A stretch of 64,000 nt of DNA from Patescibacteria group bacterium (GTDB taxonomy: Bacteria; Patescibacteriota; Patescibacteriia; UBA9934): contig JBAQTB010000001.1 in the NCBI GenBank assembly GCA_049296775.1, positions 31,491 through 95,490 on the forward strand, read 5' to 3'. The notes beneath the pieces were generated by a model. It saw nothing but the letters and a program-made list of their open reading frames with translations, was not told where the DNA came from and made no database searches. Positions 51,426 through 58,179 of the stretch are shown piece by piece. A program made the position numbers and the translations under genes. Positions within the stretch are counted from its first letter, which is position 1; every line of letters starts with the position of its first letter.

Positions 51426-51465
51426 GGTCCGAGCAACAAAAAAACTCCCTAACTAGGAGTTCTTG

Positions 51466-51608
51466 CATTCGACTCACTTCGTCTTCCCAAGTGGTCGAAG
51501 ACCATGAGCGAGCGAAGCTTGATAGCGCGTCCTTCGATGAACTCAGGACATTCGACTCGCTTTGTCCTCTCGCTGGTCGAAGACCATGAGCGAGCGAAGC
51601 GAGTCGAA
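51466..51608. repeat. Two tandem copies of an ~60-80 nt hairpin-forming repeat immediately 3' of tRNA-Ser(UGA).
   Basis: Copy A spans 51466..51520 and copy B about 51529..51608. Their core is cattcgactc.cttcg..ggtcgaagaccatgagcgagcgaagcgagtcgaatg, and copy B abuts the tRNA CCA end. They are homologous (about 85-90 %) to 58009..58089. Confidence 0.6.
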
Positions 51609-51696
51609 TGGCGGAAGGGGCGAGATTCGAACTCGCGGTACCTTTCAGTACGACGGTTTTCAAGACCGTTACCTTAAACCACTCGGTCACCCTTCC
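51609..51696 (-). tRNA. tRNA-Ser(UGA).
   Basis: 88 nt on the minus strand: GGAAGGGTGACCGAGTGGTTTAAGGTAACGGTCTTGAAAACCGT...GGTACCGCGAGTTCGAATCTCGCCCCTTCCGCCA. Anticodon loop CUUGAAA, a long variable arm and an encoded CCA. Confidence 0.85.
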
Positions 51697-51809
51697 AAAT
51701 TTACCGTCAGAGAGCCTCTAACAGTGCGCTCCGCAGTTTAGTAGATATTCGATTTTTTGTCCATGGCCTAGCTGGGGAGCTATAGTGTAACGGAATATCG
51801 ACTAAATCT

Positions 51810-52082
51810 ATGTCGCAACATCCTCCCATTCCCCCACTCCCTAAAGACGCTCCCCAATCCGGAGAGTTGTATCGGCACTATAAAGGTGGAGTTTACGAAG
51901 TAGTGCTACTCGCGATCAATACCGTCGATTCCGCTTGGACGGTGGTGTATAAACCTACTTATCCCAATCCGGGAGCTGATTATTTTACCCGACCTTTAGA
52001 AGAATGGCACGAGGTCGTAAAATACAACGATAAATTGGTGAAAAGGTTTACCAACAACGAAAAGCTGCTATACTATACATAG
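51810..52082 (+). CDS. DUF1653-like small protein.
   Basis: 90 aa. YRHYKGGVYEVV matches the DUF1653 HYKGGxY signature. Confidence 0.55.
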   Translation: MSQHPPIPPLPKDAPQSGELYRHYKGGVYEVVLLAINTVDSAWTVVYKPTYPNPGADYFTRPLEEWHEVVKYNDKLVKRFTNNEKLLYYT

Positions 52083-52119
52083 AAGCTCTGGAAGCTCAGG
52101 TTGATAGGCGGCCTGATTT

Positions 52120-52638
52120 TTGGAGTTTATGTATAGTGGTATGGACAGAGATATCCGTTGTAAGAGCTGCAGTAAACTACTTGCAAAACAATTGGGAGAT
52201 CTTTCTCGTTTAGAAATAAAATGCGTGCGCTGTGGTAGTCTGAACTTTATCCTCGGAGAAAGTCTAGAAAAATTTCCAGGGCAGATTATCGTGGCGGAAT
52301 CGAATGGCAAAATCGTCTACGTCAACAGCTCCATCCTGCGAGCTTGCGGCTATTCAGAAGCGGAAGTTATTGGAAAAACGCCGGCGCTGTGGGGAGGCTT
52401 GATGCCCAAAGAATTTTATACGGAAATGTATCGAATTTTAATCGAAGAAAAAAAGCCGGTCATTGGTGAGGTCATTAATAGACATAAGGATGGTCACCTA
52501 TACCTCGCCAGCCTCAGAATATGCCCCATACTGGATAGTGAGCGTAAAATGAGTTTCTTTCTTGCCACAGAAAATGTTAAAAACCCTAACGTAACCTTAC
52601 CCCACCCAGCCATGGAAAAAATGCCTGTCTCAGATTAG
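52120..52638 (+). CDS. Com-family zinc finger fused to a PAS sensor domain.
   Basis: The N-terminus IRCKSCSKLLAKQ...IEIKCVRCGSLNFIL parallels the phage Mu Com zinc ribbon (IRCKNCNKLLFKA...IEIRCPRCKRHII). Residues about 55-150 carry a PAS-like core (IIVAESNGKIVYVNSSILRACGYSEAEVIGK). Confidence 0.6.
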   Translation: MEFMYSGMDRDIRCKSCSKLLAKQLGDLSRLEIKCVRCGSLNFILGESLEKFPGQIIVAESNGKIVYVNSSILRACGYSEAEVIGKTPALWGGLMPKEFYTEMYRILIEEKKPVIGEVINRHKDGHLYLASLRICPILDSERKMSFFLATENVKNPNVTLPHPAMEKMPVSD

Positions 52639-52716
52639 TTCACGACCAACTCACAATCTTAAAGAGACTCCAGAAGTCCATACACCAGAGGCTCTAGAAG
52701 CCCATATGCAAATCAT

Positions 52717-55700
52717 ATGGGCTTTTCTTGTAACTACTTGCATCGGCTTAAGTTTAAGAAGATCAGCGCGATTGTTTCCATCCTACTACTGAACAGCTTC
52801 TTATTTCCGAGCACTTCCATAGCAGCTGATACCGTCGATGACATGCTGGTTTATAGGGGTGGTGGTGATACCAGCATTCCAGAATATAAGTTACGTGATA
52901 CTGGCGGATTTGAAAGTGAAGGCACGGCTGCAGATGTTACCAGTGCCGTTCAGTACGTAAAAGTCCTGAGTAAGCCCTCATCTGCTGCTACGGAAAAGAT
53001 TCTCTGTACCCAAGACAGTGCCGGCGATTCAAATTGCCAAATCTGGGATGGATCCAATTGGGGGAATTTACTTGAAATCACGGCGGCTAGTGGCAGCAAC
53101 GGCGGCACAGATGTAGTGTATGAAACCGTGAGCGGACGCGCCCTAGTCTGCTACCGGACTACGAGTCCAGACAACCAAACGCCAGCTTGCCGCATCTGGG
53201 CAGATGGCGCCTGGATAGCACCGGCCAGTGCGCTATCAGTTGGCGCCACCATCCAAAACTTAAAACTATACGCCGATCCCAATAGTAATTACGTGGCCAT
53301 GGTGACTAAAGATGGTAGCTCAGACGTCAATGTCCAAATTTGGAATGGTACCAGCTGGGGCAATTTACAAGAAGTCTCCACAGGCTCTACAACCTGCAAC
53401 CGCTGCACCTCTTTTAGTGGTGCTTGGGAAGCATCTTCCAGTGATTTTGTGATTAGTTGGTATGACAATGCTACGGACACCATGCATAGCCGTGAATTTG
53501 ATAAATCGACGCTCTGGGCCAGCCAGGTGACAGATATTATTACCGGCTTGAGTGCCGCAGACAACGTGTGGGTAGAAATGGCGGCTAACCCAACTACTGA
53601 TCAAATCTTGGCCGTAGTATCTGATGACGACGACACCCTAACCGCCAATTACTGGAACGGTTCCAGCTGGGGCACACAAACTGAACTTGCGGCCAACATT
53701 GGTGGCGTGGTGGGTACGAATAATCGATTATTTGACGTGGTGTATGAAGCTGGCGGCGCAGAAGCTGTGGTCACGTACGGCTCAACCTTGTTGACCTTAA
53801 GTTACCGCGTCTGGAATAGTGCCGGTACCAGCTGGGCAGATGCTGAGCTCCTACCTCTCGCGATTGAATTGAAGGATTGGCATATCTTAGTCGCCGACCC
53901 CAATTCTGATGCGATCATGTTAACCACGGTAGGCACGGTCAACGATGTCGATACTCTAGAATGGGATGGTGACGCTTGGGATGCAGGCTGGACATCTCAC
54001 GAACTCGCTGGGAGTGACCAATATGAAACCGCATCCTTCGCCTATGATTACGAAGATGAGACTAGCAATACACCACCGACGATCTCATTCAATAGTGCCG
54101 CACAAAAAACTGATGGATCCGGCTTGGTAGATATTTCCATTGAGGTCGATGATGCCGATCTAGATGACACTCAAGTAAAAATCGAATACGAGACTGACGG
54201 AGATGGCGCGTGCAACGGCCCGTGGGCAGCGGCCACGTTGGCAGGCCCAGCCACGGCTGATTTTACAGATGGCGGTGGCGTTCCAAACGTGGATAACGGC
54301 CAAACGTATCAAGTGGGTCCCGGCGTCAATACGCGAATCATCACGACTAGCGGCTCGAATACCGTGACTTTTGATTGGCAATCCACCACCGATGTGCCAA
54401 CTGGCAACGGTACGCACTGCTTACGCGCCACATCTAATGATGACGCGGCTGACGCCACCACACCCGACACCATCACTCTTACTTTAGATAACGTTGATCC
54501 AACCGGCTTAGCTAATTGGACGAGCTTTGGTGCAGCTGCGACTACGCAACATTTGAATTGGACCTCAGCCGCTGACACAAATTTTGATCATTATGAAGTC
54601 TGGTACGGCACCAGTCAAAGCGATGTACAGAATCGTACCGGTGCAGCCGTAGAATTTGATGATGACGATTACCTCGCCCTAAATACCGCCTCCACTCATC
54701 ACACTCACATTATCGACCTGACCCCAGATACATCTTACTATTACAAAATTTGGGCAGTGGATACATTTGGAAATGAGCAAACAGTCGCAGATTTAAACTC
54801 TGCCACTGATCCTACCGGTAACTCAGTGCCAAATTCCACAACTCCAACTTCAATCTCGCAGGCTACAGACGGTTCAGGTTTGGTGACATTTACCACCACG
54901 ATTTACGATGTCGATCTAGAAGGGGTAGAAATGCGCATGCGTTTTTCTCCAGATGGCGGCACAACTTTTTATAACGGACAGATTGATTCTGCTACCCCTA
55001 ATTATGGCGATCTCTCCATTGACGTAAATGATTTCCAGATTGGACACACGAATTTGATTGATATCACAGAAGAAGGACCTCATCCTGTTAGTCTAGAAAT
55101 CGTCTGGGATTCAAAGTCTGCCAGCAACCAAAACGGCGGACTAGATAACACAGCCACCGACGTGATCATCCGAGTCACGCCCCGTGACGCCGGCGGAGAA
55201 ATCGGTTTAGATGATGACAGTTTAGCATTTGCTCTGGATAACGCCGGACCCGCCCTGGCAGAAGTCACACCCGTGCCCACCGGTACCACTGACACCACTC
55301 CAAGTTATACGTTTTCCGCTGATGAAGGTGGCGATATTACCTACGGCGGCTCCTGCGCTAGCGCTACCACCACCGCCACGACAGGCAACAATACGATTAC
55401 TTTCAACGCCTTAGCCCAAGGAACATATAGCAACTGTGCAATCACAGTAACTGACGATTTTGCTAATGACACTACGCTAAATGTCACCGCTTTTACAGTC
55501 GACACGACTGCGCCAACCGGTTTAACTGCCCTATCCGCCGGCGCATCTGCGCCAACGACTCAAGCACTGATTTGGTCAGCCGTAACTGAAACTAATTTCA
55601 ACCATTATGAAATTTGGTTTGGGACCAACCAAACCCATGTCCAAAACAGAACCGGTACGGCCACAGAGTGGGATAACAGTGATGACGCTACTCTAGCCAC

Positions 55701-57702
55701 ACGAACCACCACAGGCACGACGATAACAGGCCTAAGTCCAGGTACCACTTACTATTACAAAATTTGGGCGGTAGATATTGCCGGACAAGAAGAAACCGTG
55801 GCCGACATGTCACAATCGACCGTGGCCAATGCCGAACCAACTGGAGTTTTTGTGAGTGCAGAACAGGTTTTTGATGGCGGACAAACGATTGAAGTCTCCA
55901 TCATCGTCGATGATGCTGATGATGAAGATCTGCGAGCAAAAATCGAATATGAAACAGATCTAGACGGCGCCTGTGATGGCCCCTGGGACCCCGCCACCCT
56001 AGCTGGAACAGTTACAGCCACCACAGATGACAGTGGCGGCCCACCAGACATTAGCAACGGCAATGCTTATCAACTTGGCTCCACGGCCACAACGCGGATT
56101 ATTACCTCTGCTGGGAGCAATACAGTTAATTTTGAGTGGGACGTGGTAGCTGACGATGTCAGCGCCAATGGTGAAACTGCTTGTCTACGATTGACAGCTA
56201 ACGACGATACTGATGATCAAACCACCCCAGACACCATCACCTTCACCGTCGATATCACAGAACCAACCATCACGGCTGGCAATATCGTCATGGACATCAC
56301 CACTGACACTGGCACGGCCGACATTGCCGGAGTAGCTGACGTGGTCCTCATCACCTGGGACAACTCGGCCGCAGGCGATAATAATAGCGATGCAGAGACA
56401 GTCGTGGCTGATCTGTCTGAATTAGGCAATGGTGATAGCGCGACTATGTTTGATGATGGGACCAATGGCGATGCTACCGCCGGGGATGATGTTTACTCGT
56501 TGGAATACACCATTGTAGAAGGTGCTATCGACGTCTCAGATGCGGACGTACATATTACAGTCACGGATGATGACAACAATGAAAATACCATTAGCAGCGC
56601 CGGAACCTTGGTAGTTGACTCAGAAAGTCCAACTGCCCCAGGCTCGTTAAGCCTAACCTCCAACGGGGTGGTGGCGATTACTTTTGGTACCCCATCACCA
56701 AGCAGCGATTTTGCCGCGTATAAAATTCATTACCGTACGAGTGGCCAAGTCGTCACTCTCGACGACAACGAAATCTCTAGCTCATCTCTAGACGAGGTCG
56801 ACTATGATGGTAATGACGGCCTTGATGTCACCGGCATCGCCAATGGCAACTACAGATTCAACATTTGGGTCTTTGATGACGCCGGCAATTTCGCCAAAGC
56901 CAGTGAAAGTGCAGTCACCGTTGCAACCGCAATCAATTTAGGTGCTGGCAACAGTGGAGGCAGCCTGAGACCTGGTCGAAGGCAGGTTCAAAAACTCGAT
57001 GCAGCACCAGAACAGTCCCCCATGTTACTACCCGACACAGCCCTACCCTGCTCAACCTGTGTCTCAGATGATCCTGCGCTGTTAGAACGTAAAATTCTCG
57101 TCATTGAAAGAGAGAAAGCCCTCGTTGAGGAAGTAGACGAATCACTCATCGAGCGCTTAGTTGGTAGAATCTTGCTGCAAGTTGAAGAGCGTGGTGAGGC
57201 TTGGTACGTAGAGCCGACCACCAAACGACGATATTACTTAAGAGACGGCTCTGACGCGTATAACGTACTGGGTAGCTCCGGACTAGGTATTACAAATGAA
57301 AATTTAGATAAAATCCCAGTTGGGATAGAGACTCGGTTCCAGATCCAAGATAGTGATGAAGATGGCCTAGATGATCGTCTAGAAGCAGGCCTACACACAG
57401 ACAATCAGAGCACTGACAGCGACAGTGACGGTGTCTCTGACATCGACGAGATCCTACTAGGCACGGATCCACTCGGCGCTGGCATAAAAAATCATGATTA
57501 CGACTTAATAGATCAACTCAAGGGTCGCATAGTGTTACAGGTCGAGCAGCGTGGTGAGGCGTGGTATATCAATCCCAATGACGGTAAACGCTATTACATG
57601 GCCGACGGTGACCTAGCCTACCAAATCATGCGCTTCCTGGCCCTCGGCATCACCAACCAAGACCTCCGCAAAATCCCCGTCCAAGACCTGGAGGGGTTGT
57701 AG
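52717..57702 (+). CDS. Giant secreted surface protein with FN3 domains, internal ~380 aa module duplication, EF-hand/dockerin-like Ca-binding loops and two C-terminal ~65 aa 'GEAWY' repeats.
   Basis: 1661 aa with a signal peptide (KKISAIVSILLLNSFLFPSTSIAAD). FN3 signatures appear twice (NFDHYEVWYG...YYYKIWAVD, NFNHYEIWFG...YYYKIWAVD). A duplicated module begins KIEYETDGDGACNGPW / KIEYETDLDGACDGPW. Ca-binding loops are DSDEDGLDDRLE and DSDSDGVSDIDE. The C-terminal repeats read GRILLQVEERGEAWYVEP..RRYYLRDGSDAY and GRIVLQVEQRGEAWYINP..KRYYMADGDLAY. Confidence 0.8.
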   Translation: MGFSCNYLHRLKFKKISAIVSILLLNSFLFPSTSIAADTVDDMLVYRGGGDTSIPEYKLRDTGGFESEGTAADVTSAVQYVKVLSKPSSAATEKILCTQDSAGDSNCQIWDGSNWGNLLEITAASGSNGGTDVVYETVSGRALVCYRTTSPDNQTPACRIWADGAWIAPASALSVGATIQNLKLYADPNSNYVAMVTKDGSSDVNVQIWNGTSWGNLQEVSTGSTTCNRCTSFSGAWEASSSDFVISWYDNATDTMHSREFDKSTLWASQVTDIITGLSAADNVWVEMAANPTTDQILAVVSDDDDTLTANYWNGSSWGTQTELAANIGGVVGTNNRLFDVVYEAGGAEAVVTYGSTLLTLSYRVWNSAGTSWADAELLPLAIELKDWHILVADPNSDAIMLTTVGTVNDVDTLEWDGDAWDAGWTSHELAGSDQYETASFAYDYEDETSNTPPTISFNSAAQKTDGSGLVDISIEVDDADLDDTQVKIEYETDGDGACNGPWAAATLAGPATADFTDGGGVPNVDNGQTYQVGPGVNTRIITTSGSNTVTFDWQSTTDVPTGNGTHCLRATSNDDAADATTPDTITLTLDNVDPTGLANWTSFGAAATTQHLNWTSAADTNFDHYEVWYGTSQSDVQNRTGAAVEFDDDDYLALNTASTHHTHIIDLTPDTSYYYKIWAVDTFGNEQTVADLNSATDPTGNSVPNSTTPTSISQATDGSGLVTFTTTIYDVDLEGVEMRMRFSPDGGTTFYNGQIDSATPNYGDLSIDVNDFQIGHTNLIDITEEGPHPVSLEIVWDSKSASNQNGGLDNTATDVIIRVTPRDAGGEIGLDDDSLAFALDNAGPALAEVTPVPTGTTDTTPSYTFSADEGGDITYGGSCASATTTATTGNNTITFNALAQGTYSNCAITVTDDFANDTTLNVTAFTVDTTAPTGLTALSAGASAPTTQALIWSAVTETNFNHYEIWFGTNQTHVQNRTGTATEWDNSDDATLATRTTTGTTITGLSPGTTYYYKIWAVDIAGQEETVADMSQSTVANAEPTGVFVSAEQVFDGGQTIEVSIIVDDADDEDLRAKIEYETDLDGACDGPWDPATLAGTVTATTDDSGGPPDISNGNAYQLGSTATTRIITSAGSNTVNFEWDVVADDVSANGETACLRLTANDDTDDQTTPDTITFTVDITEPTITAGNIVMDITTDTGTADIAGVADVVLITWDNSAAGDNNSDAETVVADLSELGNGDSATMFDDGTNGDATAGDDVYSLEYTIVEGAIDVSDADVHITVTDDDNNENTISSAGTLVVDSESPTAPGSLSLTSNGVVAITFGTPSPSSDFAAYKIHYRTSGQVVTLDDNEISSSSLDEVDYDGNDGLDVTGIANGNYRFNIWVFDDAGNFAKASESAVTVATAINLGAGNSGGSLRPGRRQVQKLDAAPEQSPMLLPDTALPCSTCVSDDPALLERKILVIEREKALVEEVDESLIERLVGRILLQVEERGEAWYVEPTTKRRYYLRDGSDAYNVLGSSGLGITNENLDKIPVGIETRFQIQDSDEDGLDDRLEAGLHTDNQSTDSDSDGVSDIDEILLGTDPLGAGIKNHDYDLIDQLKGRIVLQVEQRGEAWYINPNDGKRYYMADGDLAYQIMRFLALGITNQDLRKIPVQDLEGL

Positions 57703-57710
57703 CAGACACC

Positions 57711-57738
57711 AAAACAACCCCGCGTGGGGTTGTTTTAG
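57711..57738. terminator. Bidirectional terminator between the giant gene (+) and the GIY-YIG gene (-).
   Basis: aaaacaa-cccc-gcgt-gggg-ttgtttta. Confidence 0.7.
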
Positions 57739-58002
57739 CTAGAGCTTCTTCCAGATACCGTTGATAAGATTTTCTTTCTTGTAACGCGACCAACCTTTGA
57801 GTTGTCTTTCTCGTTTTCTAGCCGAAAGCATGGAATCGTACGTTTCTTGATAGACGAGTTTTACTGGGCGGCGATCATTAGTCCAATCTGCACCTGCGCC
57901 GGCATTGTGTCGGTCAACTCTCGCAATAAGATCATTCGTGGAACCAACATAATAGCTCCCGTCACGACATTCTAAAATATACAAAAAGTATTGCGCACTC
58001 AT
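57739..58002 (-). CDS. GIY-YIG nuclease superfamily small protein (UPF0213/YhbQ-like).
   Basis: The ORF opens at 58125 across the tRNA, but the GIY-YIG fold begins at MSAQYFLYILECRDGSYYVGSTNDLIARVDRHN (ATG at 58002), giving 87 aa. It continues ...VYQETYDSMLSARKRERQLKGWSRYKK. Confidence 0.75.
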   Translation of the reverse strand: MSAQYFLYILECRDGSYYVGSTNDLIARVDRHNAGAGADWTNDRRPVKLVYQETYDSMLSARKRERQLKGWSRYKKENLINGIWKKL

Positions 58003-58008
58003 GTATCT

Positions 58009-58089
58009 GTCCTTCGATTGACTCAGGACATTCGACTCGCTTCGCCTTCCCAAGTGGTCGGAGACCATGAGCGAGCGAAGCGAGTCGAA
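58009..58089. repeat. Third copy of the tRNA-Ser trailer repeat, between tRNA-Ser(GCU) and the GIY-YIG gene.
   Basis: gtccttcgattgactcaggacattcgactcgcttcgccttcccaagtggtcggagaccatgagcgagcgaagcgagtcgaatg. A 15 bp perfect inverted repeat (TTCGACTCGCTTCGC / GCGAAGCGAGTCGAA) flanks a 29 nt loop. It abuts the tRNA CCA end. Confidence 0.6.
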
Positions 58090-58179
58090 TGGCGGAGAGG
58101 AGAGGATTCGAACCTCCGGAACCATTGCTGGTTCACAGGTTTAGCAAACCTGCGCCTTAAGCCGCTCGGCCACCTCTCC
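58090..58179 (-). tRNA. tRNA-Ser(GCU).
   Basis: 90 nt on the minus strand: GGAGAGGTGGCCGAGCGGCTTAAGGCGCAGGTTTGCTAAACCTGT...GGTTCCGGAGGTTCGAATCCTCTCCTCTCCGCCA. Anticodon loop UUGCUAA, a long variable arm and an encoded CCA. Confidence 0.85.

Follow-up and report, generated by a model that had tools for sequence, protein, structure and literature searches.

Why are two different serine tRNA genes of a patescibacterial genome followed, at the very next base, by the same hairpin-forming repeat, and why does one of these copies lead straight into the gene of a small GIY-YIG nuclease? The question is raised by a stretch of 64,000 nucleotides (nt) of contig JBAQTB010000001.1 (Patescibacteria group bacterium, UBA9934; assembly GCA_049296775.1), called the window in the following, in which the genes for tRNA-Ser(UGA) and tRNA-Ser(GCU) lie 6.5 kb apart. 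An original prediction from the sequence of the window had offered several answers, namely a tRNA-Ser-specific trailer or terminator, a processing signal, a miniature mobile element targeting tRNA 3' ends, or a relic of a nuclease-mediated duplication. We favour the mobile element, and the movement itself is what we infer from 44 gene-bearing and 18 solo units among 68 copies and from one extra unit at a pair of orthologous loci. The repeat is probably the cis-element that belongs to the small gene of a GIY-YIG nuclease with a single domain. The system would broadly resemble that of the Ssn nucleases and their SRM/NTS repeats (Chenal et al., Nat Commun 2025, PMC11893778), in a variant that is anchored at the 3' ends of tRNA and transfer-messenger RNA (tmRNA) genes. 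The GCU locus is a complete cassette consisting of element, nuclease gene and terminator, and at the UGA locus a copy without a gene is followed by an older, truncated one.

Read on the minus strand, both tRNA-Ser genes end in CCGCCA and the element begins without any spacer: after the CCA both loci continue with TTCGACTCGCTTCGCTCGCTCATGGTCT(T/C)CGACCA...GCGAGTCGAATG, followed by GTCCTGAGnnnATCGAAGGAC. The element is composed of three modules, a long stem P1 built from the arms A and A' (CA-TTCGACT...AGTCGAA-TG), a box B and a hairpin C (YCCT-GA-G...C-GA-AGGR), whose positions are given in Table 1. The first two pairs of P1 are formed with nucleotides 75 and 76 of the tRNA, the CA of its CCA, and counting these the base of the stem at the GCU locus reads CATTCGACT/AGTCGAATG. 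Box B contains a mini-hairpin with a stem of 4–5 bp, and hairpin C of the GCU copy shows a 5-bp stem, tandem G/A mismatches, one G-C pair and a 5-nt loop. With 80 and 81 nt and 88% identity the two elements are indeed the same, as had been claimed, and the two tRNA-Ser are indeed different genes, with an identity of 72% in a global alignment instead of the estimated 60%. The stem noticed originally is present as well, and the repeat is longer than this stem and includes hairpin C as a second conserved hairpin. The predicted fold has an energy of -47.6 kcal/mol for the GCU copy (z = -7.0 against shuffled sequence) and of -38.8 kcal/mol for the first UGA copy (z = -4.2), the latter differing from the GCU copy in the 3' half of the loop.

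The order at the UGA locus is a complete unit, an 11-nt spacer, a partial unit of 52 nt and a terminator, with no gene, so that the two copies expected there, one of them degenerate, could be confirmed. The partial unit is without the first 9 nt of P1 and without hairpin C, and it is more similar to the GCU copy (94% identity) than to its neighbour (87%). It is bracketed by the 4-nt direct repeat CAAG (window 51518-51528 and 51462-51465, minus strand), which looks like a microhomology-mediated templated insertion; chance is also possible. Throughout the 64 kb, the 17-mer arm was found five times with up to three mismatches (0.22 expected) and the 19-mer loop box three times (0.01 expected), all of these occurrences being confined to the two tRNA-Ser loci. 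The flanking sequences agree in about 50% of their positions over the 100 nt before the tRNAs and over the 100 nt behind the element, a background value, and thus the two loci do not result from a segmental duplication. As the similarity also extends past the 17-nt arms, neither of the two findings that would speak against a common element was made. The statement that this is neither a CRISPR array nor a tRNA duplication was right.

To see how widely the arrangement occurs we used the 27-nt A'/C junction for a motif-first scan of one genome per species (GTDB collection, 185,579 genomes). It gave 63 loci, which together with the window and earlier loci represent 68 distinct copies from many classes of Patescibacteria, from Opitutales/Verrucomicrobiota, Planctomycetota and Armatimonadota and from some metagenome-assembled genomes (MAGs) labelled Gammaproteobacteria; several other MAGs carry two to three copies. 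A tRNA of one of 13 types or a tmRNA ends on the same strand within 260 nt upstream in 53 of the 68 copies, for which chance would account in at most 2.6% even in tRNA-rich loci. Serine leads the list of partners with 16 of the 53 cases, to which the window and its three closest relatives belong, followed by proline (8), valine and tmRNA (5 each), alanine (4), threonine (3) and eight other types. From the remaining copies eight show CCA followed by TTCGAY with no called gene, five are cut by contig ends and two show nothing. In 64 of 69 motif hits CA+TTCGAY precedes the motif by no more than 300 nt, the element starts immediately behind the CCA with TTCGACT and zero spacer in the loci inspected by eye, and its orientation is always that of the tRNA. 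The tmRNA (ssrA) 3' CCA precedes the element in L015, L020, L038, L039, L044, L078 and L082, which belong to Planctomycetota and some other MAGs.

The second association concerns the nuclease. A GIY-YIG open reading frame (ORF) follows downstream on the same strand in 44 of the 68 copies, 18 copies are solo and six are undecidable. Both links suspected in the original prediction, to tRNA ends and to GIY-YIG genes, therefore hold in the genome collection. Solo units are often found between two tRNA genes, and gene-bearing cassettes within tRNA operons fill the spacer, with the stop codon 6–7 nt before the next tRNA or overlapping it. Since 44 of 51 other tRNAs in these loci are without the element, it is not a general tRNA trailer in these genomes, and in the window tRNA-Thr and tRNA-Arg have no such trailer either.

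The copies are held together by sequence as well as by pairing. Across phyla 27 nt of stems and loops are invariant while the neighbouring proteins share 40–63% identity, which argues for sequence-specific recognition and not for structure alone. In the short-hairpin subclass 96.5% of the cells are paired and 11 cells are double-changed, with 0 of 500 shuffles matching the covariation score. P1 reaches past its invariant 9 bp in most copies (median 11, maximum 20; median 9 for arms paired across loci), and many long units possess an extra local hairpin between TTCGACT and box B with clear compensatory changes. The outer pair of hairpin C is CG in 37, TA in 11, TG in 13 and CA in 4 of 65 copies. 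At the A'/C junction a two-codon mini-ORF ATG-YCC-TGA is always present in all type-I elements, as the tRNA-linked elements of this kind are called here (window 58019-58027 and 51539-51547, minus strand).

The nearest GIY-YIG homologues (62–66% identity) are from other Patescibacteria and are encoded directly after tRNA-Ser genes (GGA, CGA, GGA). Their elements keep the CCA followed by TTCGACT...AGTCGAATG as well as CCCTGAGnnnGTCGAAGGG, and the P1 interior differs in a compensating way, for example ACCGTT/AACGGT versus CGCTTCGC/GCGAAGCG. In two of these three loci box B has moved to a position just before the ATG; nearly all related loci keep it, either in P1 or after hairpin C. A protein-first sample of 80 metagenome loci at 43–59% identity, 71 of them usable, contained 14 with a same-strand tRNA within 400 nt upstream, and nine of the 14 are tRNA-Gln genes without an encoded CCA. 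The sequence in this tRNA-Gln clade differs and the plan is the same: P1 (TCTTCGTCGC/GCGACGAAGA or ACTTCG../..CGAAGT) encloses a B-like hairpin and is directly followed by a C-like hairpin CACT-GA-GC...GC-GA-AGTG. In both the CCA-encoding and the CCA-less kind P1 starts at tRNA position 75, two nucleotides past the discriminator base, and the end of P1 changes in concert with positions 75-76 (CA/TG, TC/GA, AC/GT). A third clade, from Alphaproteobacteria and many soil contigs, has no adjacent tRNA, and its genes stand between two C-type motifs in inverted orientation (L072, L074, L075). In a rough neighbour-joining tree of the proteins the order of the leaves follows these three element types (tRNA-linked type I, tRNA-Gln and inverted C), as would be expected for a cognate pair of protein and site.

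Among published systems the nearest are the Ssn nucleases, single-domain GIY-YIG proteins whose genes are flanked by the oriented hairpin repeats NTS/SRM (PMC11893778). SsnA binds its motif solely when the DNA is single-stranded, makes its cut a few nucleotides 5' of the hairpin and is inactive on RNA and double-stranded DNA, and the authors describe a layout like that of an insertion sequence (IS) and liken it to REP/RAYT (PMC11893778). As in Ssn, the window protein is a single GIY-YIG domain of about 90 amino acids (aa), its gene adjoins an oriented motif made of a 5' flank and a hairpin (GTCAT + hairpin in NTS, GTCGAATG + hairpin C and GCTCATGG + mini-hairpin here), further copies of the motif stand in the genome without a gene, in the window at the second locus, and in related clades the gene is framed by two motif copies in inverted orientation. 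Unlike in Ssn, the element is a composite of P1, B and C with about 80–110 nt that is restricted to the upstream side of the gene, it starts with nucleotide 75 of a tRNA or tmRNA gene, and it is harboured by Patescibacteria, Planctomycetota, Verrucomicrobiota and Armatimonadota instead of mainly by Pseudomonadati. The Ssn work makes no mention of tRNA (PMC11893778), and in relation to it the motif and the composite architecture are new, as is, within the full-text library searched, the anchor at tRNA and tmRNA 3' ends.

Table 1. Features of the two tRNA-Ser loci (positions in the window of 64,000 nt)
Feature	Position	Strand	Details
tRNA-Ser(GCU), CCA encoded	58090-58179	minus	ARAGORN; Rfam tRNA 57 bits
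GCU locus, stem P1 (modules A, A')	58029..58089	minus	TTCGACTCGCTTCGC...GCGAAGCGAGTCGAATG, 16 bp
GCU locus, module B, in P1 loop	58055..58074	minus	TCGCTCATGG + mini-hairpin (GGTC TCC GACC)
GCU locus, hairpin C	58009..58029	minus	GTCCT-GA-G-TCAAT-C-GA-AGGAC
GIY-YIG nuclease gene, 87 aa, single domain	58002..57739	minus	Pfam PF01541, E = 1.4e-16, residues 5-78
Terminator-like hairpin 3' of nuclease gene	57711..57736	minus	AAAACAACCCC-ACGC-GGGGTTGTTTT, read from sequence
Promoter-like site before tRNA-Ser(UGA)	51735..51763	minus	TGGACA, 17 nt, TAAACT; consensus match only
tRNA-Ser(UGA), CCA encoded	51609-51696	minus	ARAGORN + Rfam
UGA locus, copy 1, stem P1	51549..51608	minus	module B (51574-51593) inside loop
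UGA locus, hairpin C	51529..51549	minus	GTCCT-GA-G-TTCAT-C-GA-AGGAC
UGA locus, partial second copy	51466..51517	minus	CTTCGC, B, loop, A'
Intrinsic-terminator-like hairpin with T-run	51440..51464	minus	closes tRNA-Ser(UGA) + element unit

The position of the GCU copy between the tRNA and a small GIY-YIG gene had been recognised correctly, and the encoded protein keeps the catalytic residues Y8, Y18, G20, R28, H32 and E65 in an alignment of 29 homologues; NCBIfam holds no family for it. Its ATG follows hairpin C after 6 nt, and the 3' arm of this hairpin (GAAGGA, 7 nt 5' of the ATG) could be the ribosome-binding site. Among the other copies the arm (GAAGG) stands 5–25 nt before the ATG, or else A' and C are read as VECPEPVEG. 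The latter subclass (L008, L015, L016, L024, L031, L032, L037, L042, L045, L049, L057, L061, L065) has no in-frame start after hairpin C; the ORF opens at an ATG in the P1 loop and A' + C are translated as (R/E)VECPEPVEG, and in L015 a TATAAT-like box lies just 5' of this ATG. The GenBank version of the window gene (P0001; 57739-58125, minus strand) has 128 aa and a start inside tRNA-Ser(GCU), and its translation runs through both hairpins (..PPFDSLRSLMVSDHLGRRSESNVLSQSKDRY-MSAQ..). Many homologues in the databases have similar artefactual tails (VECPEPVEG, PELVEG, FDKLTVLSEVEG, DSLRS), which are translated hairpin motifs. This explains a common annotation artefact, in which ORFs run through the hairpins into the tRNA and give rise to VECPEPVEG, LSEVEG or DSLRS tails. 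The hairpin 3' of the nuclease gene was not flagged by a consensus terminator scan, and the homologue in L001 also has a similar hairpin 3' of its gene.

A consensus scan detected no promoter-like site from tRNA-Ser(GCU) to the ATG. Together with the orientation of the element, the positions of promoter-like site and terminator at the UGA locus and the tight fit into tRNA operons, this suggests that element and gene are co-transcribed with the tRNA. The cassette would then be a selfish and at least formerly mobile unit that is wedged between a tRNA gene and the terminator of that gene. The window shows no separate promoter for it, and transcripts that start at the tRNA promoter would read through into it. 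Processing of the tRNA 3' end would free the mRNA and leave P1 as a protective 5'-terminal hairpin. The nuclease might recognise the sequences of hairpin C, of box B or of both on single-stranded DNA, by analogy to SsnA and NTS, and breaks at this site could drive the copying or turnover of units at tRNA junctions.

That the cassette is probably mobile is indicated by a comparison of L040 and L059. These are orthologous loci with flanks that are 80–95% identical, and from box B onward their elements agree in 85 of 86 positions. L040 contains in addition a complete 97-nt unit at the CCA junction in place of the first 25 nt of the L059 unit. A complete unit at the CCA with a 5'-truncated unit behind it was found in L022, L040, L043 and at the UGA locus of the window, the truncated unit being the older one. 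In L059 the first 25 nt after the tRNA-Val CCA form a local hairpin TCATTCCGC-TTT-GCGGAAT that is close to the Neisseria NTS core GTCATTCCCGCG..GCGGGAAT, and the same hairpin is also inserted in the box B loop. Four loci (L009, L016, L047, L066) have a tRNA, an insert of 80–250 nt and a duplicated tRNA 3' end that is joined to the TTCGACT element. Here, another insertion with its own copy of the tRNA 3' end arrived after the element and displaced it downstream along with the old tRNA end. L066 and L056 have another short repeat in common (..GAGAACCCACAAATG).

Several observations weigh against a nuclease cis-element of the Ssn kind. The SRM pattern HGTCWYN(0-2)YYVSBRHN(0-5)WNVSBRGN(0-2)RNCYNB, applied as a regular expression that matches an NTS test string, has 0 matches in the 565 kb of motif loci including the window, and also 0 matches near L071-L076. 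With NTS-flanked GIY-YIG genes from viral contigs as a stand-in for Ssn (cd10448), the window protein shows 36% identity to one of these proteins (L193, E = 1e-15), and it compares with E = 4e-15 to UPF0213 BH0048 and with 44% identity to yazA. A rough neighbour-joining tree places the NTS-flanked proteins within the sample and UPF0213 near the root, at distances that are all similar. The window protein is thus equally close to UPF0213 and to NTS-flanked GIY-YIG proteins and an Ssn-type activity would be an extrapolation, so that working like Ssn is a more defensible claim than membership of the Ssn clade. In the tRNA-linked loci there is no inverted motif 3' of the gene, the motif being on the upstream side only, unlike in NTS-ssnA-NTS. 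No empty orthologous site was found, the nearest case being the polymorphism between L040 and L059. In L149 (1989-2001) a GIY-YIG ORF that belongs to the tRNA-Gln clade begins 12 nt behind the tRNA-Gln with zero hairpins, and the link to tRNA does not strictly need hairpins. The predicted stability of the sense and antisense strands is equal (28/60, p = 0.75) and does not identify the folding strand; the sole pointer to one of them is that T·G outnumbers C·A at the outer pair of hairpin C, which hints at the tRNA-sense strand. GIY-YIG enzymes are hydrolytic nucleases and not transposases, and we know of no mechanism that would place a unit exactly after the CCA. Finally, the pairing of P1 with positions 75-76 in CCA-less genes and the position of hairpin C over the ribosome-binding site or the first codons suit a role at the RNA level at least as well.

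Such a role is the core of the alternative that survives best, in which P1, B and C are purely a structured leader of a tRNA-mRNA co-transcript and are not recognised by the nuclease. The leader would define the cut between tRNA 3' end and mRNA, protect the mRNA 5' end and mask the ribosome-binding site. It would account well for a P1 that starts two nucleotides past the discriminator and covaries with positions 75-76 whether or not the CCA is encoded, for a GAAGG arm that is either near the ATG or translated together with A', for cassettes that fill tRNA-tRNA spacers with the stop codon abutting the next tRNA, for the constant co-orientation with the tRNA and for the stretch from tRNA-Ser(GCU) to the ATG that is without a promoter-like site. 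However, 18 of the 68 copies have no downstream gene to regulate, the 27 nt that stay invariant across phyla next to such divergent proteins point to recognition by a sequence-specific protein, and related genes are flanked by inverted C motifs, of which the downstream antisense copy cannot be the same RNA. No Rfam family matches the element either: with Rfam 15 only tRNA reached the gathering score in the window and 15 related loci, and matches with E up to 10 were at chance level over tRNA or hairpin. We therefore regard an exclusive role as RNA leader as rather unlikely. The same functions may coexist with a nuclease cis-element, and the processing signal of the original prediction is possible as a second, RNA-level role.

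Very unlikely in our opinion is a new self-cleaving RNA directly after the tRNA, which would cut at its own 5' edge and free both the tRNA 3' end and the mRNA. Several stems that covary, joined by conserved junction nucleotides, and the exact 5' boundary at the tRNA end would fit a ribozyme, but there is no match to an Rfam ribozyme family even with E up to 10, and a module B that is located in P1 or after hairpin C is hard to fit into one catalytic fold. A hammerhead-like core in hairpin C was considered and rejected, as the consensus CUGAnGA...GAAA does not fit.

A tRNA-Ser-specific trailer or transcription terminator is not supported and in our view extremely unlikely. In the window, at both loci, and in the three nearest relatives the element does stand behind tRNA-Ser, which is also the most frequent partner overall, but the element occurs on 12 other tRNA types and on tmRNA, most other tRNAs in the loci as well as tRNA-Thr and tRNA-Arg of the window do without it, neither P1 nor hairpin C is followed by a T-run (P1 leads into hairpin C, and C into ACAGATACATG or ACGCGCTAT), and the real terminator stands separately after the UGA element. 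Hardly any weight can be given to a recent segmental duplication or a remnant attachment (att) site of an integrase-type island either, even if tRNA and tmRNA 3' ends are classic sites of island integration and a duplicated tRNA 3' end lies beside the element in four loci, because the two copies in the window have unrelated flanks, which also refutes the duplication relic proposed originally, the repeat holds no tRNA sequence beyond CA, no integrase gene is nearby, and in the four loci the element sits behind the displaced tRNA end and hence predates the other insertion.

If the nuclease cis-element is compared with further known systems, the nearest relatives with a characterised fold are the UPF0213 proteins, to which the sequence similarity is of the same order as to Ssn-type proteins. 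They are also the only relatives with structures in the PDB (YazA, YhbQ; 1ZG2, 1YWL), where no Ssn structure is found. Unlike the window gene, yazA belongs to a housekeeping operon trmNF-yazA-rsmI with no hairpin repeats and no adjacent tRNA gene. In L277 and L278 (Bacillus, Enterococcus) yazA overlaps its neighbours in this operon, which encode tRNA m6A37 and 16S rRNA methyltransferases, and this is a different, RNA-modification-linked context.

With REP/BIME-RAYT and the 'peel and paste' elements IS200/IS605 the system has in common that short hairpin repeats are scattered and that one or a few small nuclease-type genes are flanked by them, and in the model proposed here the enzyme would likewise recognise a single strand in its folded form, the hairpin having a guide-like sequence at its foot. 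The enzyme, however, is a GIY-YIG hydrolase and not a Y1/HUH transposase with a covalent intermediate, and the element sits at a single, structurally defined place, the tRNA 3' end, instead of a tetranucleotide or intergenic space. Membership of the REP-RAYT or IS200/IS605 families is ruled out, as the associated gene is of the GIY-YIG type and there is no HUH transposase. Another GIY-YIG gene lodged between tRNA genes is that of SegB from phage T4, a free-standing homing endonuclease in a tRNA gene region whose inheritance is tied to this region. Enzymes of the I-TevI/SegB type have an added DNA-binding domain and cut the double-stranded DNA of alleles lacking them, unlike the bare catalytic domain of 87 aa with its hairpin element. 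A further parallel is tRNA punctuation in mitochondria and in bacterial tRNA-mRNA operons such as tufB, where an mRNA is bounded by tRNAs and its ends are set by tRNA processing enzymes. In contrast to these systems, the mRNA here comes from a small nuclease gene that looks selfish and has a conserved, structured leader of its own, and it stands behind many different tRNAs.

Between the two tRNA-Ser loci of the window the plus strand encodes a repetitive protein of 1661 aa with an internally duplicated segment (52717-57702), which is probably surface-exposed, and a protein of 172 aa with a Mu Com-type zinc ribbon and a PAS domain (52120-52638). Among the neighbouring ORFs Pfam recognises NUDIX, DUF1653, Com/PAS and RecG. 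The GC skew of the plus strand is negative nearly throughout the window (1-64000), and thus the minus strand with both tRNA-Ser genes and their elements has the composition of a leading strand.

A full-text library search for tRNA-adjacent GIY-YIG genes or hairpin elements found no description of them or of the arrangement at tRNA and tmRNA 3' ends, a query for COG2827/UPF0213 being swamped by unrelated matches. Tentatively, and with more doubt than for the cis-element as such, it is possible that the cassettes represent an undescribed class of mobile elements that insert at nucleotide 74/75 of tRNA and tmRNA genes by means of a hairpin-guided GIY-YIG nuclease specific for single strands. P1 would serve to place the tRNA junction beside the protein that binds hairpin C, and expression would depend on the tRNA promoter and the tRNA processing enzymes. 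If this is true, Ssn-type nucleases would have a second and very different genomic lifestyle, which would also give a handle on their role outside Neisseria, and the cassettes might provide new pairs of nucleases and recognition sites for single-stranded-DNA tools. For the Patescibacteria it suggests that bacteria with tiny genomes harbour a selfish element that is expressed by tRNA punctuation.

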